A DNA stretch of 64,000 nucleotides, taken from positions 1,152,001-1,216,000 of the forward strand of contig OY970364.1 in NCBI GenBank assembly GCA_963718565.1, read 5' to 3'. The translations under genes were made by a program, and so were the position numbers. Positions within the stretch are counted from its first letter, which is position 1. The number at the start of each line of letters is the position of its first letter. Shown piece by piece: positions 10,641 to 54,283 of this stretch. This stretch comes from an uncultured Verrucomicrobiae bacterium. Lineage in GTDB: Bacteria > Chlamydiota > Chlamydiia > Chlamydiales > Rhabdochlamydiaceae. The notes under the pieces were generated by a model that did no database searches, had not been told where the DNA came from, and worked only from the letters and a program-made list of their open reading frames with translations.

Positions 10641-10961
10641 GAGCCGCTTGCAAAAATGCACGTCGCATAAAATCGCCCTTTTGCCATCTTTTGACTTGGT
10701 GGCGGCTCCTCTACTTTCTCAAGTATGTCTTCGCCGCCGCCAACCGAACCCGCTGTGCGGGTTCTGTCAATAGATGCCAAAATCGTACGTCCTTAAAAAC
10801 TCATGGCAAAAGTTGAAGACCATTTTGATCCATGCCTGATTGAGATCGATAAATGCAAAGCCTGGCATGGATCCAAATGACATTCAGTGCTTGCCATAGG
10901 TTTTTGAGGACGTACCCAAAATCATCGATTTTCTGCTGGCGTGCATTTTTACAAGTGGCTC
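10641..10961. mobile_element. GAG-ended MITE (182 bp) carrying a nested 131-bp MITE
   Basis: TIR GAGCCGCTTGCAAAAATGCACG / CGTGCATTTTTACAAGTGGCTC, flanking TAGA duplication; internal sequence shared with 30912 and 45181 copies. Confidence 0.85.
10785..10915. mobile_element. 131-bp GTACGTCC MITE, copy 1
   Basis: GTACGTCCTTAAAAAC...GTTTTTGAGGACGTAC, 8-bp TSD CCAAAATC. Confidence 0.92.
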
Positions 10962-12507: not shown

Positions 12508-12638
12508 GTACGTCCTTAAAAACTCATGGCAAAAGTTGAAGACCATTTGGATCCATGCCTGATTGAGATCGATAAATGCAAAGCCTGGCATGGATCCAAA
12601 TGACATTCAGTGCTTGCCACAGGTTTTTGAGGACGTAC
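12508..12638. mobile_element. 131-bp GTACGTCC MITE, copy 2
   Basis: Near-identical to 10785-10915; 11-bp flanking duplication CCTTGTTAGGT. Confidence 0.92.
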
Positions 12639-12848
12639 CCTTGTTAGGTACGTCTAAGTCTCCTTTTGATGGACCAACTTCGCAAAACTAATACATAACC
12701 TTTAATTTTAAAATTTAATTTATATATTAAATAAAATTAATAAATTACATTAATTGGTTTTAAAAAAATCACAAAATAAATTGAAGTTTTTATAAGATTT
12801 TAGTAAAATATATAGTGTTAATAAAAACAATAAATATGCGAGACAATT

Positions 12849-13824: not shown

Positions 13825-13844
13825 GAGGGAATTGCAATTCCCTT
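13825..13844. repeat. 20-bp palindromic micro-element
   Basis: GAGGGAATTGCAATTCCCTT flanked by TAAC/TAAC. Confidence 0.85.
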
Positions 13845-27386: not shown

Positions 27387-27390
27387 AACA

Positions 27391-27468
27391 GAGGGAATTG
27401 CAAAACTCCTCGCCAGCAGAAAATCGATGATTTTGGCACCTGTTGCCAGAACCCGCACAGCGGGTTCG
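27391..27468. mobile_element. Half copy of GAGGG MITE
   Basis: GAGGGAATTGCAAAACTCCTCGCCAGC... is the reverse complement of the right half of 45181-45362. Confidence 0.85.
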
Positions 27469-29088: not shown

Positions 29089-29219
29089 GTACGTCCTCAA
29101 AAACCTATGGCAAGCACTGAATGTCATTTGGATCCATGCCAGGCTTTGCATTTATCGATCTCAATCAGGCATGGATCCAAATGGTCTTCAACTTTTGCCA
29201 TGAGTTTTTAAGGACGTAC
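29089..29219. mobile_element. 131-bp GTACGTCC MITE, copy 3 (inverted)
   Basis: 8-bp TSD CTCCATGA; supplies the stop codon of 29208-30191. Confidence 0.92.
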
Positions 29220-30191
29220 CTCCATGACAGATTTCCATTTGTCCAAGTACTTAACCATGCCGGAAAAGCTTGAAGTATCGAGAATTTCCACAAGCGGGCC
29301 CCCAATGTGGGAAATTGCCGTCGTATTGATATGGAACTGTTGATAGCAATAAGTGTCCCAGTCGATGATTTGAGCACATGAGGAAAGGTACCCTCGATCG
29401 ATTAAGGCATTAAAAAACTTTTGCGGATCGTTCAATTCATTCTTCTCGTGGGTTTGAATCACAATCAATTGTAAATTGTCTCTAGGAAATTCAAGAAAAG
29501 GAGTGAGGTTCATCGCACGCGACATTCCTGAAATGATCCCATTTAAATAGGTAAAGCGAGAAGGCGTTTTGTCTTCAACAAGCAGATAGAGATGAGGATA
29601 GAGATGTCCCCGAGGCTCCTGATTGGTGAACAGGGGATTTTCAACTCGAAATCGACTAGAATGAGTCAAGACAAGTTTAGCTGTCGTTTTCCGTGAATCT
29701 CCAAGAGAGAGTTCAATCATTTTTCGGGAAGAATCAATGAAAACGCTTTCCAATTTTTGATGGAGAAGGACTGCATTGGAACGAGATTGAATCGCTGCTT
29801 GCAATCGCGATACAAGCTCATAACACCCATGGGAAAAATAATAGCCGTTTGCGCATTGAGAATGAGAATCCATTGCCTCTTGGTCAGGATGCAGCAAACA
29901 AAGAAATTTGCACCCAAAGTATTTTTGAAAAAACTCTTTTAGTCGAGGATCGGCACCGATCAAATGACAACCAAGATCGGCATTGGCAATTCCACAGATA
30001 TCAATACTCTTCCATGCGCCGCCGCATTTTTCATCAGCCTCTAAGATCAAGACACGCTCGTTCTTTGAGATGTGGTAGATCGCTTCCAACATTGAAATAG
30101 GGCTGGTGCCAACCACAGCAACATCATAGTCAGTGTGAACAGCAAACAGCAATCCCTTCAACAAAAGGAGAAGGACTAAAACAAAACGCAT
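29208..30191 (-). CDS. Exported protein with degenerate FAD/NAD-binding N-terminus
   Basis: YDVAVVGTSP...VLILEA...GGAW...DLGCH Rossmann-like pattern. Confidence 0.7.
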   Translation of the reverse strand: MRFVLVLLLLLKGLLFAVHTDYDVAVVGTSPISMLEAIYHISKNERVLILEADEKCGGAWKSIDICGIANADLGCHLIGADPRLKEFFQKYFGCKFLCLLHPDQEAMDSHSQCANGYYFSHGCYELVSRLQAAIQSRSNAVLLHQKLESVFIDSSRKMIELSLGDSRKTTAKLVLTHSSRFRVENPLFTNQEPRGHLYPHLYLLVEDKTPSRFTYLNGIISGMSRAMNLTPFLEFPRDNLQLIVIQTHEKNELNDPQKFFNALIDRGYLSSCAQIIDWDTYCYQQFHINTTAISHIGGPLVEILDTSSFSGMVKYLDKWKSVMEVRP

Positions 30192-30213: not shown

Positions 30214-30798
30214 TTAAGTCACTTTAAAATCCTTCCAATAGTTTAGATTGGCATTGGTCTCTTGATTAAAAGAGAGCGAAAAAAAAGTGTTTACAAGTTT
30301 GCGAAAGTCACTCCATGGCCTATCGCCATATCCATACACGGACAAGAGTGGATGAAAGCGCTTTTCTAAAGGGCTTCCGACCAGATATTTTCCCCAAACG
30401 AGCTGTTGGGTTTTTGAAAAAAGAGTAGCTCCGGCAAATAAACAAGCCCCCGCAATGAGAATAGGAATTCCAAGCGACATTCGAACAGCAGTGGATAAGG
30501 GTTGTGCAATAACACCAAGACCCTTAGAAATCTCCTCTACACTTATAGCAGCATTTGCACAAATTTGGACGACTAATTCCCCCGCTCTCACCGCGAAGAA
30601 GGGGGGGAAACCAAGTGCCATAGCTAGAGTGGATTTGGTTCCTTGCTCACATCCAGGAATTTTTAACTCCCGTTGTACATCCTGTGATGTCAAACGGTCG
30701 AGAAATATCTGTTGTCTTGCATTCACTCGACGCTCAATTGTACTTACCTGATTTGTAGAAAAGGTTGGAGATGGATGACGCGAACCAATTGGATGCAT
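30214..30798 (-). CDS. Hypothetical membrane-associated protein
   Basis: About 194-aa ORF with hydrophobic segments. Confidence 0.6.
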   Translation of the reverse strand: MHPIGSRHPSPTFSTNQVSTIERRVNARQQIFLDRLTSQDVQRELKIPGCEQGTKSTLAMALGFPPFFAVRAGELVVQICANAAISVEEISKGLGVIAQPLSTAVRMSLGIPILIAGACLFAGATLFSKTQQLVWGKYLVGSPLEKRFHPLLSVYGYGDRPWSDFRKLVNTFFSLSFNQETNANLNYWKDFKVT

Positions 30799-30903
30799 AA
30801 ATGACCTCAGGGTTGATTTTACCCGACCTAAGGTACCACAACACACAGATTAGTTTAAAAATAATCCTGTCAATTTTTCAGAAATCTGATATTGCATAGG
30901 GAT

Positions 30904-32166
30904 ATGCTTAAGAGGGAATTGCAAAACTTCTCGCCGCATAAAATCGCGCTTTTGGCACCTGTCGCCTTGGCGGCGGCTGCCTTCGGCCCCGGTTCGCTCC
31001 TTCGCTCACCTGCTTTGCACTGCGAAGGTTCCCCGGACCTTCTCGTGTCTTCGCAGCCACTTATCCAAGTATGCTTTCGCCGCCGCCAACCGAACCCGCT
31101 GTGCGGGTTCTGGCAACAGGAGCCAAAATCATCGATTTTCTACTGGCGAGGAGTTTTGCAACTCCCTCTTAAATGTTTCCTTTTTTCTTTGCTTGTTTAT
31201 CCAGGGCTGTTACGTGCGAGTGAACCGGAACAGGAAAAGAATACTTCACAGGAAATTGTACCCTGGTTCACTGGTCCATTAATCGCTCCTATTGGAGCTG
31301 TCATTCCCATTGGGCACTATTGCATTCAACCCTTTTTTGAGTTCAATACTGCGACGGGCATTTACAATCGTCATCGGCATGATGTTTCGACGCCGAATTT
31401 TTTTAACTTCATTGCTAGCGTTCAAGTCACAGTGGGAACTTTAGAATGGATGGATATTCAGATTACTCCTGAATTTCTTTACAATCATACTCACGCGGAT
31501 ACTCTGCCCAATCCTCATAGTGCATCCTCCTGGCGCTTGGGCGATCTGCCTTTAAATTTGGATTTCCAACTCGTGAGTATAGACAAATTTAAATATTTTC
31601 CAGGAATTAAATTCTCATTGACAGAGTCTTTTCCAACAGGAAAATATCAAAAGCTCAACCCTTTCAAACTACTCACAGATATTGGAGGCAGCGGGACTTT
31701 TGCGACAACAGGCAGTCTGGTCTTTTACAAAATCTATCACATTTCTGGGTTTCATTTTTTAAGCATGACAACAAGTCTGGGCTATACCTATCACACCCCT
31801 GTCCATGTAAGAGGCCTTAACTTTTACGGAGGAGGGCCTGGCTGCGCTGGAAAAGTATATCCTGGCAATTCCTTTGGAGCCATCGCAAGCTTTGAATTCA
31901 GCCTCGATCGACACTGGGCTTTAGCTTTAGACAATGTTTATGTCCATTTTGACAGGGATCGTTTTAAAGGAACCCCTGGATTCAGCGCCCCTTTAATTCC
32001 CGCTATCGTAGGAAGACCTTCTTCAGAATCACTCAGTTTCGCCCCAGCGATCGAATATAATTTTAATGAGAACTGGGGGATCATCGCCGGCGCATGGGTT
32101 TCTGCAATCGGACGAAACACGCTGGTCTTCCGCAATGCTCTTTTGAGTTTTGTTTACCAATATTAA
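30904..32166 (+). CDS. Outer membrane beta-barrel/transporter-like protein with in-frame MITE insertion
   Basis: PWFTGPLIAP, FPTGKYQ, APAIEYNF, aromatic C-terminus; native N-terminus MLKCFLFSLLVYPGLLRA is restored by removing 261 bp. Confidence 0.8.
   Translation: MLKRELQNFSPHKIALLAPVALAAAAFGPGSLLRSPALHCEGSPDLLVSSQPLIQVCFRRRQPNPLCGFWQQEPKSSIFYWRGVLQLPLKCFLFSLLVYPGLLRASEPEQEKNTSQEIVPWFTGPLIAPIGAVIPIGHYCIQPFFEFNTATGIYNRHRHDVSTPNFFNFIASVQVTVGTLEWMDIQITPEFLYNHTHADTLPNPHSASSWRLGDLPLNLDFQLVSIDKFKYFPGIKFSLTESFPTGKYQKLNPFKLLTDIGGSGTFATTGSLVFYKIYHISGFHFLSMTTSLGYTYHTPVHVRGLNFYGGGPGCAGKVYPGNSFGAIASFEFSLDRHWALALDNVYVHFDRDRFKGTPGFSAPLIPAIVGRPSSESLSFAPAIEYNFNENWGIIAGAWVSAIGRNTLVFRNALLSFVYQY
30912..31168. 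mobile_element. 257-bp GAGGG...CCCTC MITE
   Basis: TIR GAGGGAATTGCAAAACT / AGTTTTGCAACTCCCTC, TSD TTAA. Confidence 0.92.
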
Positions 32167-32288: not shown

Positions 32289-32308
32289 GAGGGAATTGCA
32301 ATTCCCTC
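32289..32308. repeat. 20-bp palindromic micro-element
   Basis: GAGGGAATTGCAATTCCCTC flanked by GTTA/GTTA. Confidence 0.9.
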
Positions 32309-32371: not shown

Positions 32372-32563
32372 ATGAAAAAATACTCATTGCTCGGCTTTCT
32401 CATTTTGTGCGCTTGCGGTGGCGGCCACTATCACGATGGCTATTATGATGATGGCTATTATGATGATCATCACCATCATCATCACGATCATGATCATGAT
32501 GAACATCACGGAGATCATGACGGTGATCACCATGAAGGAAGCCACGGCGGCGGACACCACTGA
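32372..32563 (+). CDS. Small His/Asp-rich lipoprotein
   Basis: GGAGG RBS, MKKYSLLGFLILCAC lipobox, poly-His tail. Confidence 0.75.
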   Translation: MKKYSLLGFLILCACGGGHYHDGYYDDGYYDDHHHHHHDHDHDEHHGDHDGDHHEGSHGGGHH

Positions 32564-32567
32564 AAAC

Positions 32568-33572
32568 TCAGCTGGTTTTATCCATTCGCCATTTAGCAAA
32601 TTGCTTAGCGTAGTAAGTGATGATAAAATCAGCGCCAGCTCTTCGAATGCCACGCAAAATCTCTAGGACAGCTTTCTTTTCATCTAGCCAACCTCTTTCA
32701 GCAGCAGCTTTGAGCATGGCAAATTCACCACTTGTATGGTAGGCTCCAAGAGGAACATAGGGATAAGCTTGTTTGACTCTGTAGATGACGTCAAGATAAG
32801 CATGAGCTGGCTTGACCATGAGCATGTCCGCTCCTTCTTCCACATCGAGATGGGCCTCGCGTAAAGCTTCCCGCGCATTGGCAGTATCCATTTGATGAGT
32901 GCTTCGATCGCCAAAACTTGGAGCTCCCTCTGCGGCAGCCCGAAAAGGTCCGTAGAGACACGAGTGATATTTCACTGAATAGCTAAGAATGGGGATCTGC
33001 TCAAAACCTGCTCCATCCAATCCTCGGCGGATCGCTGCAACCATCCCATCGATCATGCCGCTGGGCGCAACGACATCGACACCAGCTTGTGCATGGCTGA
33101 TGGCTTGCTTTACAAGCAATTCTAGTGTTTTATCGTTGTCAAGATCGACCTTCCCGGCTCTTGGGCTTAAATATCCGCAATGCCCATGATCGGTATATTC
33201 GCAAAAACAGAGATCGGAAAAAATCAGAAGATCAGGAGCAGCTTTTCGAATGGTTCTAATGGCCTCTTGAATGATCCCATTTTCATGGTAGGCATCTGAG
33301 CCCAGAGGATCTTTGTACGGCGGTATCCCAAATAATAAAACCGATCTCAGACCAAGATCGACAATCTCTTCAATTTCTTGAGGAAGACATGGAATCGGAA
33401 TGTGGAACAGCCCAGGCATGGTGTCAATAAGCTGTTTTTTGCCTTCATGCCCTTTAATAAAAAGCGGGAGAATGAGATTTTGAAGATCAATCTCAGTTTC
33501 CCGAATCAAATCCCGCAAAATAGGATGCTGTCTTAACCGTCTTAAACGTGAGAATGGGAATGTCGTCGTCAT
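32568..33572 (-). CDS. hemB: Porphobilinogen synthase
   Basis: DLCFCEYTDHGHCG, APSGMIDG, MLMVKPA. Confidence 0.97.
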   Translation of the reverse strand: MTTTFPFSRLRRLRQHPILRDLIRETEIDLQNLILPLFIKGHEGKKQLIDTMPGLFHIPIPCLPQEIEEIVDLGLRSVLLFGIPPYKDPLGSDAYHENGIIQEAIRTIRKAAPDLLIFSDLCFCEYTDHGHCGYLSPRAGKVDLDNDKTLELLVKQAISHAQAGVDVVAPSGMIDGMVAAIRRGLDGAGFEQIPILSYSVKYHSCLYGPFRAAAEGAPSFGDRSTHQMDTANAREALREAHLDVEEGADMLMVKPAHAYLDVIYRVKQAYPYVPLGAYHTSGEFAMLKAAAERGWLDEKKAVLEILRGIRRAGADFIITYYAKQFAKWRMDKTS

Positions 33573-34393
33573 CACTTGCCTTTATCCTCTAGAGGGAATT
33601 GCAATTCCCTCTCTACTTTATCGAGCTGAAGATTCACTTGAGCGATATAGAATTTTGATGTCCCTTCAAACCCTGAATCTGTCCCTAAGAAGATCCAGAG
33701 GCGGCCTTGAGAATCGCTTTGCGCGCGCAAGGGGATTCTATGACCTAGCTGTTTAGGACAATAACGGGAATCATAAGGATCTAGGGCCGGACTTTCCAAA
33801 TCGCCGATGACTAGAGCATTTTTTCCAGAGCTCGCTTGATTACCCTTGTCGACATTCAACAGATAATAGTCATTTAGAAGGACCTTTTTGGGCTCTTCGC
33901 AACTCGCACCAACTTTGAAAAATACGCTTTTCCCTGGAGACCCGCCAATTCCCACCGAAAACCCTGAGGAGACATTGCTTTCGATCCAAACAGAAAAAAT
34001 GAGATCATAAAAGGCATTGGGCTGCAAACCTTCAATTTGGCGCTTGGCAAACATAAAAAGATCATCACTATGGTTATTTCCTGTTAAGAAAAAACCTTTT
34101 GTGAGGTTTGTACTGGAAGTGCTGATCTCAACAGGAAGATTTTCCCATCCCCATGCGAGTTCGAAAAAACTCTCGCCACCTACAGGATAATCCGCAAACT
34201 CCCCCACCCATCCATGATTGCTGTTAGAGAAAGTAAACTCATTGACGATCTCTTGCGCCCCAAACAACGAAATCGACCTGATTAGGGAAATAACGATAAA
34301 TAGAGGGAATCGCAAAACTCCTCGCCAGCAGAAAATCGATGATTTTGGCACCTGTTGCCAGAACCCGCACAGCGGGTTCGGTTGACAGATCAT
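33572..34393 (-). CDS. Hypothetical exported protein with MITE-derived segments at both ends
   Basis: FADYP, GNNHSDDLFMF, GTDSGFEG core; N-terminal QPNPLCGFWQQ and C-terminal RELQFPLE are MITE-encoded. Confidence 0.75.
   Translation of the reverse strand: MICQPNPLCGFWQQVPKSSIFCWRGVLRFPLFIVISLIRSISLFGAQEIVNEFTFSNSNHGWVGEFADYPVGGESFFELAWGWENLPVEISTSSTNLTKGFFLTGNNHSDDLFMFAKRQIEGLQPNAFYDLIFSVWIESNVSSGFSVGIGGSPGKSVFFKVGASCEEPKKVLLNDYYLLNVDKGNQASSGKNALVIGDLESPALDPYDSRYCPKQLGHRIPLRAQSDSQGRLWIFLGTDSGFEGTSKFYIAQVNLQLDKVERELQFPLEDKGK
33592..33611. repeat. 20-bp palindromic micro-element inside a CDS
   Basis: GAGGGAATTGCAATTCCCTC flanked by TCTA/TCTA. Confidence 0.9.
34303..34384. mobile_element. Half copy of GAGGG MITE
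   Basis: Near-identical to 27391-27468. Confidence 0.85.
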
Positions 34394-35029: not shown

Positions 35030-35554
35030 CAGTCTTTTGTTTCTATCACCATACTATTATAATCGCTTTATTAAATAAATATTGTCAATTTTGTAATTAA
35101 TATAATTATAAAGTGGTTCCTTTTGTCTAGACCAAAAATCGAGAAATCTAAGCTAATCTCCTCTGTTGTTTAATCTAACTCCCAGGGCCCTATACAAAAG
35201 CCCACGGGTTTGCAAAGGGCAGTCAGCCCTTTGCTGGGGTTCAAGGGGCAAAGCCCCTTTCTTTTTCTTATGTCCCATAATACACCTCTGCTGGGGTTCG
35301 ATAATCGAGACCCTGATGGGGTCGCTTGTTGTTGTAAAACTCAAAGTACTTTTTCAGCCCCGATCGAACCTCTTTCATGCTCTCGTATCCTTTCGGGTAA
35401 ATTTCTTCATACTTCACGCTTCTCCACAGCCTCTCAATAAACACGTTATCAAGAGCTCGACCCTTCCCGTCCATACTGATTTTAATCCCATTCTCTTCAA
35501 GTTTCCCGGTGAATTGACTACTCGTAAACTGCACACCTTGATCAGTATTAAATA

Positions 35555-36733
35555 CTCACCTTACGCAAATCGGTAAAAATTTCTTGACAAGGCCTGTCTT
35601 TTTTTCGTAGTCTTGTTCAATTTTTTGGAGAAAAAATGAACAGACTACTCGATATCTATTCGGATTACTTGATTGCTCAGAATCAATATGCAACAGCAGT
35701 TGGTCTCTCAGATCTCTTAGAAGGCCGGATTAGTCATGACAAAATTACTAGATTTTTGAACAGCAATGAATTTTCATCCAAAGAGCTATGGGAATACATC
35801 AAGCCGGAAATTCGCAAGATTGAACAAGATGTAGGAGGAGTGCTTATTTTTGATGACACGATTGAAGAGAAGACCTACACGGACGAAAATGAGATTATTT
35901 GCTGGCATTACTCGCATGCCAAGGGAAGATGTGTGAAGGGGGTCAACCTTTTATCATGTCTTGCTCGCTACGGAGATATTGCCTTACCCATTGCTTATGA
36001 GCCTATTTATAAAGACGTGCTTTTTTGTGATGTCGCCAGCAAAAAAGTAAAAAGACAGTCTTCAGTCAGTAAAAATCAAATGTTTCGATCTATGATTGCC
36101 CAAGCTGTAACCAATAAGGTTAAATTTGACTATATATTGTCTGATAATTGGTTCGGAGCGAAAAAAAATATGGAGTTTATTCATTATGATATGAAAAAGA
36201 AGTTTGTAATTGGGATCAAAGCTAATCGATTGGTCGCTCTTTCTGAAGAGGACAGAAAAAATGGTCAGTACCAAAATCTAAATGCATTACCACTCAAGGA
36301 TGGAGAAAAAAGAATAGTCTGGCTAAAAGACATGTCTTTTTCTGTAGCACTCATTACAAAGATCTTCAAAAACGAAGACGGCTCTACAGGCACTCTATAC
36401 CTTGTTACAAATGACTTAGAAAGTAGTGCTGACCGAATCTACGAAATCTACCAAAAACGGTGGCGCATAGAAGAATATCACAAATCGATCAAGCAGAACG
36501 CTAGCCTTGAGAAATCGCCGACTAAGGTTCTGCGCTCTCAAAAGAACCATATTTTTGCATCAATCATCGCTTATTGCAAGTTGGAATTTCTCCGAACTCA
36601 AACTTTTTTGAATCATTTTGCTCTGAAATATCAATTACTGATGAAGGCAAATCGAATGGCATTTTTAGAACTTGAACGGCTGCGGTTCAGAACTGGTTGC
36701 GATATGGTTGGAGCCCATTTTGCGTAAGGTGAG
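35555..36733 (+). mobile_element. IS701-like insertion sequence
   Basis: 15-bp TIR CTCACCTTACGCAAA, 7-bp TSD TTAAATA. Confidence 0.9.
35636..36727 (+). CDS. IS701-like DDE transposase
   Basis: SHDKITRFL, LIFDDT, SDNWF, YQKRWRIEEYHKSIKQ. Confidence 0.9.
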   Translation: MNRLLDIYSDYLIAQNQYATAVGLSDLLEGRISHDKITRFLNSNEFSSKELWEYIKPEIRKIEQDVGGVLIFDDTIEEKTYTDENEIICWHYSHAKGRCVKGVNLLSCLARYGDIALPIAYEPIYKDVLFCDVASKKVKRQSSVSKNQMFRSMIAQAVTNKVKFDYILSDNWFGAKKNMEFIHYDMKKKFVIGIKANRLVALSEEDRKNGQYQNLNALPLKDGEKRIVWLKDMSFSVALITKIFKNEDGSTGTLYLVTNDLESSADRIYEIYQKRWRIEEYHKSIKQNASLEKSPTKVLRSQKNHIFASIIAYCKLEFLRTQTFLNHFALKYQLLMKANRMAFLELERLRFRTGCDMVGAHFA

Positions 36734-37725
36734 TTAAATATCTCAGGTCTTTTTTGCCAAAGACTCCTTTGCAATGCCTCCATGCAAAATTCTGTATCAA
36801 GCAGATTTGAGAGCTCCCACTCAATCACGTACCGACTATACCAGTCTATGATTGCAAACAGATATCCGAATCCTTTTGTTAATGGAATGTAAGTGATGTC
36901 AGCTGCCCAAGCTTGATCGGAACGATCAACAATTAGGCCCCTCAGTAAATACGGGAACTTTTTATGCTGTTTATTCCCAGCGCTCAGGTTCGGCTTTGGA
37001 TAGATCGCCTCTATCCCCATCACCTGCATCGCTGTTCGCACTTTTTTCTGTCCCACGACAAATCCTAGTTTTCTCATTGCCACTGTCATTCGACGCCTCC
37101 CATAATAGGGGGTTTCGAGGTACTGTTTGTCGATTGCGCACATGAGTCGCAAGTCTTCTTCACCAGGCTGCTGTGGCTCGTAGTACAATCCAGATCGACA
37201 TACTCCGAGGAGCTTACACTGTGCTCTTTGGGAAAATTTGATATCGTGAGGTTCAATGAGTGCCCGTTTTTCATTCAGGTCAAAGCCCCCAATTTTTTTT
37301 TAAGCCACTCGTTCTCCATCTTGAGTCTTCCAATCTGTTCGAACAGTTCGGCCTTTTCTTTGCCCTCTGCTGTATCCCTAGACCTCCTGGTCTTTACAAA
37401 AATCTGAGGTCCTGCCTCAATAAATTGTTTTTTCCATTCCGACAGAACTACGGGATGTACCCCCAACTCGCCAGCGAGTTGGGTTGCTGTCTTCTCACCC
37501 TTGAGCACTTCTAGTACTACTTTGAGCTTGAACTCCGGTGAATATTGTTTTTTTGTTTTGGCCATTTTGGCCTCCTCGCATTGGGAGGATATTAGCTTAG
37601 ACAGTGGTCTAAATTTTGGGGACCATTATATTAAGCTTTAATAAATGAATTAAAAAAATATTAATTATTAAAGCCTCAATTTTATAAAGAAGCGATTAAA
37701 AGTAAGAGCTTTAGAGAAGAAAGAT

Positions 37726-45180: not shown

Positions 45181-45362
45181 GAGGGAATTGCCAAACTCTT
45201 CGCCGCATAAAATCGCGCTTTTGGCACCTGTCGCCTTGGCGGCGGATCTCCTACTTATCCAAGTATGCTTTCGCCGCCGCCAACCGAACCCGCTGTGCGA
45301 GTTCTGGCAACAGATGCCAAAATCATCGATTTTCTGCTGGCGAGGAGTTTTGCAATTCCCTC
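45181..45362. mobile_element. 182-bp GAGGG...CCCTC MITE
   Basis: TIR GAGGGAATTGC, TSD TATT. Confidence 0.92.
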
Positions 45363-52160: not shown

Positions 52161-52288
52161 GTACGTCCTTAAAAACTTATGGCAAAAGTTGAAGACCATT
52201 TTGATCCATGCCAAACTTACCACTTATCGATCTTGATTGGGCACGGATCGAAATGGTCTTCAACTTTTGCCAGAGTCTTCAAGGAAGT
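52161..52288. mobile_element. Diverged GTACGTCC MITE
   Basis: Left end matches the 131-bp family; right end degenerate. Confidence 0.7.
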
Positions 52289-52982
52289 TAATGTACGTGC
52301 TACCAGTCAAGGTGTGGCCGGAGAGGCTGTTTGATAACGCTCATGAACAAATTGTGCTAAATCGATCGGATCCCATCGAAACCACCGACTCAAATACTCC
52401 CAAAAGCTCACGCCAAGTCTGGCGCATGTCTGCCTCAAGGTTTTTTAGACGGGCTCTGTGAGTCGACGCGAAAAGGGACCCGCCAATCGAGACGAAGTCC
52501 GGGCGGGAGTGAGCGCACGAACAGCCAATCAGGTTTTGTGAATTTGGACTAGAGCAAGGCAAAGCACAATCGAAAAATTTTTATATTAGACATAATGTTA
52601 GAGTAAAACAGAGATTGACAGTATATAAATAAATGTACTAATATAGATTACAGATAATAAAAAAATTGGAGAAAAAAATGAGTTTACAGTCTATCAATTA
52701 TCCTTACAAAGTCGCGGAACTAAATCAAAATTTTATTGATAGAATAAAAGGTTTAAAATCCAATGACATACGGGTAAATCTTTTTATTGGCAGATCGCCC
52801 TCAGGAAATGACTTGCCTTTGCCAATGTCGAGTGCAAAAGAAGTTTGGATTTCTTTATCTGTCGATCGCATTGATGAAAATGCTTTCCTCGACCCAAATC
52901 GCATTCATTTAATTCTTGACTGCAACGCATCCGATCAAATGCAAAAAATTCAAGGTCTATTTCGACTTGTCGTTATTGATCT

Positions 52983-54283
52983 CAGGGCCATTTAACTAAA
53001 AATTTTTGATACCAGATCAGCTAAGATGGCATAATAAATTCCTCAAATTTGGAGGACCTATTATGTCACGCCGTAAGCCAATCGACGCCACAATCCTAGA
53101 AGCTAGTAAGAATTTTGATGCCCGTGTATTCGCGGAAACCGTCAAGGGAGAGTTTGCAGATTTCCCTGATTATCGACGTAATCAAAAACGTGTCTTATAT
53201 CCAGTTTGGTATTTGACTCTTGTTATTCTCTGCGGATTCTTTTGTGGATGCAATACGATTGAGGAAATCGCTGAATATGTTTCTCTGCAGGAGGAGTGGT
53301 TTTCTTCTCTGCTAGGTGAGGAGCTCTCAGCACCTTCCCATGGAGCGCTCTGGTGGTTTTTAGTGAAAACACCCCCTGGTGCGCTCAAGCACTACTTGCA
53401 AAAATGGTTCAGCAAAATTCCTGCTTCATTGCGCGATCAGCTATTGGCGATCGATGGTAAACGGATGAAAGGCGCAAATTTCCTAGGCGGTGTCACACAC
53501 GTAGTGGAGCTATTCGCAGCGGAGGATCGATTATGTCTTGCCGTGGAAAAGGTCCCAAATAAAACAGTCGAAAAGAGCACGTTACCAATCATTTTGGAGC
53601 AAGTGAATGTAGAGGGGGCGATTATTTCAGGAGATGCACATTTCACCGTAGCCGAATCGGCAGAACAAATCGTTGATGCGAAGGCAGATTATCTGCTGGC
53701 TGTTAAGGACAACCAGCCAACGCTGTGCGCTGAAATGGAGAATTTTTTTGATCAAGCTCACGCAGTCGAATGGGAGGAAGTCCCCCATTCGTTTCACCAG
53801 GAAGTAGATAAAGGCCATGGTCGAATCGACATTCGAGAAGTACGAGTCGTCGAGGACCTGGACTGGTTGCCAAATGCGGGCAAATGGAAAAACTTAGTCT
53901 GTCTCATCGAAGTAAGGTCCACGAGGCAAAAACTTGGATCTACTGCCAATGAGGTATTTAGACGGCTATATATTTCGAGTCGTCGAGCATCTGCCAAAGA
54001 TTTTGCTAAATGGACCCGACAGCACTGGAGCATAGAAAACAAATGCCATTGGGTAGCTGATGTGATTTTTGAAGAGGATTATGCATTGACGGATAGAGGG
54101 AATAGTGCGGAGAACATGGGGTTGTTTCGACGTTTGGCTATGAACATGGCTGCAGTTGTAGATCCAGAAAGGGGGCTCGCCTCCGTAAGGCGCGCAGCAA
54201 CTTTCGGTGGTGGGTACTTAAAGGGAATTTTGGCAACATTTTTCTGTTCGAAAATGTCAAAACATTTTAGTTAAATGGCCCTG
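52983..54283 (+). mobile_element. ISAs1-family insertion sequence
   Basis: TIR CAGGGCCATTTAACTAAAA, 10-bp TSD TTATTGATCT. Confidence 0.95.
53063..54274 (+). CDS. ISAs1 transposase
   Basis: LAIDGK, GDA, LAVKDNQPTL, KGHGRI, R.HWSIEN..HW..DV.F.ED. Confidence 0.95.
   Translation: MSRRKPIDATILEASKNFDARVFAETVKGEFADFPDYRRNQKRVLYPVWYLTLVILCGFFCGCNTIEEIAEYVSLQEEWFSSLLGEELSAPSHGALWWFLVKTPPGALKHYLQKWFSKIPASLRDQLLAIDGKRMKGANFLGGVTHVVELFAAEDRLCLAVEKVPNKTVEKSTLPIILEQVNVEGAIISGDAHFTVAESAEQIVDAKADYLLAVKDNQPTLCAEMENFFDQAHAVEWEEVPHSFHQEVDKGHGRIDIREVRVVEDLDWLPNAGKWKNLVCLIEVRSTRQKLGSTANEVFRRLYISSRRASAKDFAKWTRQHWSIENKCHWVADVIFEEDYALTDRGNSAENMGLFRRLAMNMAAVVDPERGLASVRRAATFGGGYLKGILATFFCSKMSKHFS

Follow-up and report, generated by a model that had tools for sequence, protein, structure and literature searches.

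Rickettsia palindromic elements (RPEs; Ogata et al. 2000, 2002, cited here through a review, PMC10969869) are repeats of about 150 bp, of which R. conorii carries 44 copies, nearly half of them located in ORFs and in frame. The same review presents ERIC, QMITE1 and the Anabaena MITEs (miniature transposable elements with inverted repeats) as ORF-carrying or fusing elements (PMC10969869). QMITE1 of Coxiella burnetii, with a length of 300-400 bp and 2-3-nt repeats of variable sequence, encodes basic peptides (PMC5896051). Chlamydiae are not mentioned in the review (PMC10969869), and in the open-access literature we found neither a description of a chlamydial MITE nor anything joining Rickettsia palindromic elements with the signal peptide. 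An RPE-like MITE family is apparently undescribed for chlamydiae.

The family presented here resembles RPEs, as that review portrays them, in being made of short hairpin repeats of a bacterium of the obligate-intracellular type that lie in frame in unrelated genes (17-18 of 92 copies here), each copy adding a conserved peptide. It differs from them in belonging to another phylum, in having clear inverted repeats and a 4-bp duplication, in using three frames that are sorted by peptide character, and in its marked preference for the region that separates the start codon from the signal-peptide core. Since the family was seen in only one chlamydia-like genus among 41 genomes, we treat it as an analogue of RPEs, compared by description, and do not file it as an RPE. 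With QMITE1 it shares the condition of a MITE of an intracellular bacterium, the short direct repeats of variable sequence, the basic peptides and the overlap with annotated genes but, whereas the overlaps with functional genes are C-terminal (gene 3' ends) in QMITE1, they are N-terminal or internal and in frame here (PMC5896051). Like intragenic ERIC and the Anabaena MITEs it shows open frames and in-frame fusions with its hosts, although those elements have other hosts and unrelated sequences, and the part of the review that deals with them describes no sorting of frames by protein location (PMC10969869).

The stretch of DNA analysed, hereafter the window, comprises 64,000 nucleotides (positions 1152001-1216000) of a genome that consists of one contig of 2,284,058 bp with 43.6% G+C. 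In this genome the TLC nucleotide transporter family is matched five times, in four cases over the full length, and there is a MOMP-like porin with nearest Atlas clusters mostly from Chlamydiota, features that fit a chlamydia-like member of the PVC group. Chlam_OMP6 (PF03504) was unmatched in the genome and equally unmatched in control genomes. The gene on which we focus starts at an ATG (30904-30906) within an open ORF of the plus strand (30892..32166) and encodes 420 aa from that ATG. Between two TTAA tetranucleotides it carries a 257-bp element that begins with GAGGGAATTGCAAAAC and ends with the reverse complement of GAGGGAATTGCAAAAC. Its features (positions in the window) are as follows.

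30904..32166, plus strand: host gene, outer-membrane-barrel-like according to its nearest Atlas clusters, one of three paralogues in the genome
30908..30911, unstranded: left target duplication TTAA, across codons 2-3, read from the sequence
30912..31168, plus strand: MITE copy of 257 bp in frame A (see below), adding 86-87 residues, 93-98% identical to other full-length copies
30912..30935, plus strand: left terminal inverted repeat (GAGGGAATTGCAAAAC...), read from the sequence
30979..31058, plus strand: inner 80-bp module, element positions 68-147, absent from the 182-bp form and known from 11 solo loci
31145..31168, plus strand: right terminal inverted repeat, read from the sequence
31156..31158, plus strand: in-frame TTG within the right repeat, 2 nt past AGGAG, a candidate restart codon with poor spacing
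31169..31172, unstranded: right target duplication TTAA, read from the sequence
31168..31218, plus strand: original signal-peptide-like stretch LKCFLFSLLVYPGLLRA, displaced to 88 residues from the start, matched by signal-like N-termini of related loci at the same position

The sequence-only reading had placed a 257-bp element in codons 2-3 of an outer-membrane protein, ahead of its signal peptide, and this layout is confirmed: the element plus one TTAA measures 257+4 = 261 bp, that is, 87 codons without a stop in the host frame, and its excision in silico together with one TTAA restores ATG CTT AAA TGT..., translated as MLKCFLFSLLVYPGLLRA/SEPEQ, a signal-peptide-like start. The duplication that it gave as TTAA holds for this copy, while that of the family is variable (T-W-W-A). 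As to the identity of the host, the nearest Atlas clusters are PF13557-type outer-membrane transporters (0.98-0.99) but the protein had no match in Pfam or NCBIfam, and we use outer-membrane-barrel-like as a provisional label taken from leads, namely the nearest clusters only. Two paralogues (38-40% identity) exist in the genome. Moreover, eight loci related to the window gene lack the insert and have signal-like N-termini, with an alignment that holds on both flanks, and the open frame of the window host extends over 433 aa as compared with 321-358 aa in the best-matching related loci, which have no insert.

In folding calculations the window copy gives a single long hairpin (-135.2 kcal/mol, z = -12.4), equalled by 0 of 200 shuffles. 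It begins 5 nt past the ATG, and a predicted structure of -135 kcal/mol near the start codon could depress initiation. Rfam searches matched nothing inside the element at E values up to 1, and a promoter/terminator scan of 30650-31300 detected none. In metagenomes of four soil runs, contig X3 (31132-31437) bridges the right junction and one contig skips 30978-31059, which corresponds to the 182-bp form; none of the short contigs from these runs crosses the whole element or presents an empty site. A search among RNA runs returned none that contains the locus. When the window peptide was compared with 5.8 billion proteins, six matches were obtained, all from this contig, where the gene caller reads through the insert.

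A BLAST search with the element yielded 354 HSPs at 138 loci of the genome. For a strict census, both ends had to show no more than two mismatches to a 13-mer, at a spacing of 18-420 bp and with 4-bp flanks differing by one mismatch at most. This disclosed 92 bounded copies of 20-335 bp, with identical flanks in 70, and the left ends with a right end 18-420 bp downstream amounted to 119. A looser end criterion (3 mismatches) was dropped because it added false elements that were ordinary coding sequence. By size, the bounded copies were distributed as 19 of 20 bp, 23 of 182 bp, 7 of 257 bp, 7 of 258 bp (the commonest long form), 3 of 259 bp and 33 of other sizes. The 4-bp target duplication (consensus T-W-W-A) lies in an AT-rich context (70% A+T), the terminal inverted repeats span about 16-24 bp, and the full-length copies (257-259 bp) are 93-98% identical to each other. 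The long forms consist of the 182-bp form plus a module of ~75 bp common to another repeat family and, because this inner module also occurs inside that other family, they can be regarded as chimeras; the 11 solo loci of the 80-bp module in this genome (e.g. 731156, 2234179) have their own conserved flanks, and the module is present in relatives too. The 20-bp copies are perfect palindromes, GAGGGAATTGCAATTCCCTC, with 4-bp duplications of their own, and would derive from a deletion of the whole MITE body between the palindromic TTGCAA of both end repeats. Of the 19 present across the genome, two lie in the reading frame of host genes, namely TruA and one coding for a hypothetical protein. Within the genus, 14 of the 18 other genomes gave DNA matches, as against none of 22 genomes representing the 22 other genera searched, so that, within the 41 genomes covered, the family is confined to one chlamydia-like genus.

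Besides the 257-bp copy, the window holds the following members of the family.

45181..45362, plus strand: 182-bp copy, TATT duplication on both sides, outside any long ORF, with the same frame open (sequence and census)
10641..10961, plus strand: older 321-bp copy with GAGCC-type ends, TAGA duplication on both sides and a nested 131-bp repeat (sequence)
13825..13844, unstranded: 20-bp palindromic mini-copy, TAAC left and right
32289..32308, unstranded: 20-bp palindromic mini-copy, GTTA duplication
33592..33611, unstranded: 20-bp mini-copy with TCTA duplication, in the frame of ORF 33572-34393 and six codons ahead of its stop
34301..34384, minus strand: truncated copy (right part) in frame A, at the start of ORF 33572-34393
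27390..27468, minus strand: truncated copy (right part)

Without its nested repeat (10785-10915, with an 8-bp duplication), the copy at 10641-10961 measures 182 bp, and the same frame contains one stop. The description of these copies in the sequence-only reading (182 bp and open at 45181, 182 bp plus a nested element and one stop at 10641, and 20-bp copies) proved correct. Some other features of the window are worth recording. ORF 33572-34393 (minus strand) takes its first ~30 residues from the truncated MITE and continues directly with a hydrophobic segment. A palindromic repeat family distinct from the MITE (~131 bp, 8-bp duplication) is found at 10785-10915, 12508-12640, 29089-29221 and 52161-52293. 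ORF 32372-32563 (plus strand) encodes 63 residues with a lipoprotein-like start and a long tail rich in His, Asp and Gly (HHHHHHDHDHDEHH...), and its product may be a metal-binding lipoprotein.

No partner insertion sequence (IS) with MITE-type ends (GAGGGAATTGCAAAAC or GAGCCAATTGCAAAAC) was found in this genome: there are seven end pairs at 421-3000 bp, none of which encloses a transposase of its own (one holds a nested ISAs1-like IS), and the four IS types of the genome all have ends unlike those of the MITE. IS5-type insertion sequences produce 4-bp AT-rich target duplications, and in this respect they are like the MITE. An IS of 2074 bp that contains an open frame of 630 aa, located at genome positions 1467590-1469663 and about 15 other sites, also makes 4-bp duplications like those of the MITE (TTAA, CTAG, TTAT), but its ends (CCCAAGTTCGC...) are unrelated. 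The ISAs1-like IS (1301 bp, ends CAGGGCCATTTAAC, 10-bp duplication) is found at 52983-54283 of the window (genome 1204983-1206283) and at 12 other sites; ten transposase genes among these 13 copies are 100% identical over their full length and the element looks currently active. Finally, at 35109-37630 an IS of ~1182 bp (ends ACTCACCTTACGCAAA) lies inside another of ~1350 bp, each of them being represented by 8-10 near-identical copies in the genome.

We then considered the lengths of the copies with regard to their location. The length plus 4, modulo 3, was 0 in 64 of the 92 copies, 1 in 15 and 2 in 13, and outside the 20, 182 and 257 bp classes the three remainders stood at 15:15:13. Therefore, the family as a whole is not frame-preserving. 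To call the location, each copy was removed in silico and the longest stop-to-stop frame across the site was taken. By this procedure, 44 copies had no frame of at least 120 codons over the site, 9 were upstream of any start codon in frame, 11 were within 15 codons of the stop, and 28 were inside a long frame and past a possible start. These 28 were curated by hand, and the in-gene and exported calls rest partly on our reading of the N-termini. Twenty of them were stop-free multiples of three and eight were not; five of these eight closed copies lie upstream of an evident true start (in a PRPP-synthetase-like, a PurM-like, a DEAD-box, a ribosomal S12 and a membrane protein frame), and the remaining three are in doubtful frames of 120-192 codons. 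Two open copies were set aside, one at genome position 2417, in a frame without a Pfam match, and one at 922454, with a likely start downstream. The in-gene copies are then 18, or 17 if that in PBP4, for which a TTG downstream of the insert may be the native start, is left out, and they add from 8 to 87 residues to their hosts.

The sequence-only reading had held that the length of every complete copy in the window, duplication included, is divisible by three, and had proposed comparing coding with intergenic copies. When this comparison was made, the rule held for all 17-18 in-gene copies and failed as a property of the family, 28 of the 92 copies breaking it: multiples of three were 18/18 in genes versus 46/74 elsewhere (Fisher p = 6e-4) and, for copies of at least 100 bp, 16/16 versus 18/41 (p = 4e-5). 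Dropping PBP4 changed these values to p = 1e-3 (all copies) and 8e-5 (at least 100 bp). The sizes one or two bases apart were distributed in the same way, since 7/7 of the 257-bp copies were in genes as against 0/10 of those of 258/259 bp (p = 5e-5). Six of the 257-bp copies carry the same three indels with respect to the 258-bp consensus and thus represent one lineage; the seventh attains 257 bp through a different third indel. Furthermore, the long in-gene copies were stop-free in 16/16 cases (p = 1.5e-5), and as the 182-bp form has three of its six frames open, about half would be stop-free by chance. The proposal of that reading, an RPE-like family inserted in frame, was thus sustained genome-wide at the DNA level, with all in-gene copies in real genes being stop-free multiples of three and with orthologues that lack the insert (see below).

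It could be argued that all this is a coincidence of descent, the main size classes just happening to be multiples of three and a GC-rich element having open frames anyway, with no signal of selection. Indeed, 49 of the 64 copies whose length is a multiple of three belong to the 20, 182 and 257 bp classes, and the number of open frames is within reach of that in shuffled sequences: the window copy has 2/6 frames open, as many as in 21% of 5000 dinucleotide shuffles (P = 0.21), the corresponding value for the 182-bp copy being P = 0.04. Nevertheless, the differences separating the in-gene copies from the rest (p = 4e-5 to 1e-3), the distribution of the 257-bp versus the 258/259-bp copies and the uniformly stop-free long copies make this explanation highly improbable. 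The shuffles give no support to an evolution of the element towards extra open frames or coding neutrality, its open-frame counts not being clearly above theirs. Since the multiple-of-three rule applies only in genes, the results point to selection after insertion and not to a frame-aware mechanism. The in-gene 182-bp copies were slightly nearer the consensus than the others (median of 3 versus 5 differences; p = 0.03) and, the copies being young, it may be that part of the insertions are slightly deleterious and have still to be purged.

Of the 18 hosts, 14 have Pfam domains. Those with the insert at an exported N-terminus are the window gene, a second exported protein with no family match, the MOMP-like porin, an FKBP, an SBP_bac_3 protein, a gluconolactonase-like protein, PBP4, a MORN lipoprotein and two glycosyltransferases. 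The cytoplasmic hosts are an OppF-like ABC ATPase, MutY, an RluA-like protein, a TsaB-like protein, isochorismate synthase and a SET-domain protein, with the insert inside or near the start, plus TruA (8 residues added) and the hypothetical protein, which carry 20-bp copies. The orthologues of the ABC ATPase, MutY and RluA in five related species lack the insert and the sequence is kept on both sides of it, the inserts being placed at stretches of variable sequence or length between conserved blocks. Solved OppF and DppF chains align to the ABC ATPase host only from query residue 106-109 on, and the structure models, built from 6-sequence alignments, were poor (mean pLDDT of 41.9 for the RluA-like protein and 40.7 for the ABC ATPase).

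Several hosts allow a comparison with close relatives. The MOMP-like porin of the closest relative sampled (G004) is 83% identical and has no insert. The gluconolactonase-like gene, on the other hand, bears an open insert at the same site in this genome and in G004, where the copy is of the 182-type form. The end repeats of the two inserts differ compensatorily (GAGGGAATTG/CAATTCCCTC in this genome, locus L021, versus GAGCCGATTG/CAATTGGCTC in G004, locus L046), which suggests replacement or gene conversion by the own subfamily of each species. In the MORN lipoprotein the insert is present in this genome and in G004 in opposite orientation, and a glycosyltransferase has different N-terminal insertion sites in this genome and in another relative (G001).

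These data bear on whether the insertions simply damage their hosts, so that the window gene, possibly along with further N-terminal cases, would be functionally dead or poorly exported and would persist only thanks to a recent date of insertion and to paralogues that make up for the loss. The similarity of the full-length copies indicates that they are young, the two paralogues of the window gene could cover its loss, and export or initiation could be blocked by an extension of 87 residues together with a strong hairpin near the start. However, none of the 17-18 in-gene hosts has a stop or a frameshift, the two hosts aligned for this purpose (ABC ATPase and RluA) retain the residues that are invariant in the five relatives, and the gluconolactonase-like gene keeps its N-terminal insert open in two species. 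Dead genes need no preservation of the frame, yet it is preserved in all of them, and we consider this possibility quite unlikely.

The peptides encoded by the three frames in use have the following characteristics.

Frame A: peptide start RELQNSSPHKIALLVPVALAAALLLIQVCFRRRQ..., maximum 19-residue mean hydropathy 2.67, pI 10.8
Frame B: peptide start GNCKT..., maximum 19-residue hydropathy 0.01, pI 10.6
Frame C: peptide start GNCKT..., maximum 19-residue hydropathy 0.38, pI 9.7

With "exported" meaning our reading of hydrophobic N-termini, frame A was at exported N-termini in 8/8 cases and frames B/C in 2/8, the other six being cytoplasmic (p = 0.0035; 0.0056 without PBP4). For the N-terminal copies in frame A, translation could conceivably restart at the TTG of the right repeat (AGGAG-TT-TTG) and yield MQ(F/L)P followed by the native signal peptide; the 60-87 residues encoded by the insert would then go untranslated, and it would be a coincidence that the frame upstream is open. 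Such an in-frame TTG exists in all eight copies of this kind, the resulting N-termini resemble normal signal peptides, and frame A is stop-free in most copies in any case. Against this, the TTG is only 2 nt past AGGAG and sits in the stem of a long hairpin, and the eight copies in frames B/C, with no start codon in their repeat, would be left unexplained. Moreover, the length modulo 3 would be irrelevant for a restart, yet all three long frame-A copies are of 257 bp while 10/17 long copies are of 258/259 bp, a weak point with n = 3. On balance, we find a restart unlikely.

The sorting of frames could also be taken to mean that the element is a host-shaped, coding-competent module, with the membrane-helix-like frame used only ahead of signal peptides and the basic frames as linkers in enzymes, so that repeated hits in a gene would reflect a role. 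We regard this as doubtful. Were it true, the helix-like frame could give N-terminally extended or anchored envelope proteins, or altered targeting, each burst of copies would add variety to the envelope proteins of an intracellular bacterium, and the genes hit repeatedly in different species, namely those for the gluconolactonase-like protein, the MORN lipoprotein and the glycosyltransferase, would bear witness to that role and not just to permissive sites.

We believe, with a probability of roughly three in four, that this is a MITE of one genus whose in-gene copies are in-frame, stop-free survivors of selection that would be translated together with their hosts. The element is a non-autonomous transposon, with inverted repeats, a 4-bp duplication and a body forming one hairpin, that lands at AT-rich sites, often at the 5' ends of genes. 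Insertions breaking the frame of needed genes would be removed by selection, and the copies found in genes would be those that passed it and would be made as part of the host protein. In cytoplasmic enzymes, these would be the basic and hydrophilic frames B and C at stretches of variable length. In exported proteins, the insert would come after the start codon and ahead of the hydrophobic signal-peptide core and would be cleaved off with the signal peptide, which would explain why inserts are most frequent at the N-termini of envelope proteins. By its layout, the window copy is such an N-terminal case, with 87 codons predicted to be added after codon 2 of an outer-membrane-barrel-like protein.

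This survivor interpretation would extend to a chlamydia-like lineage the behaviour of selfish DNA inside genes known in Rickettsia. One genome offers here a natural experiment with lengths that are one base apart, the 257-bp form being only in genes and those of 258/259 bp never. For annotation, it means that genes with inserts of this kind should not be labelled as pseudogenes or given wrong starts. It also suggests, as a general rule, that the stretch from the start codon to the signal core is the most permissive site for in-frame insertion in a compact genome, and that the hydrophobicity of the peptide may decide which proteins carry which frame.
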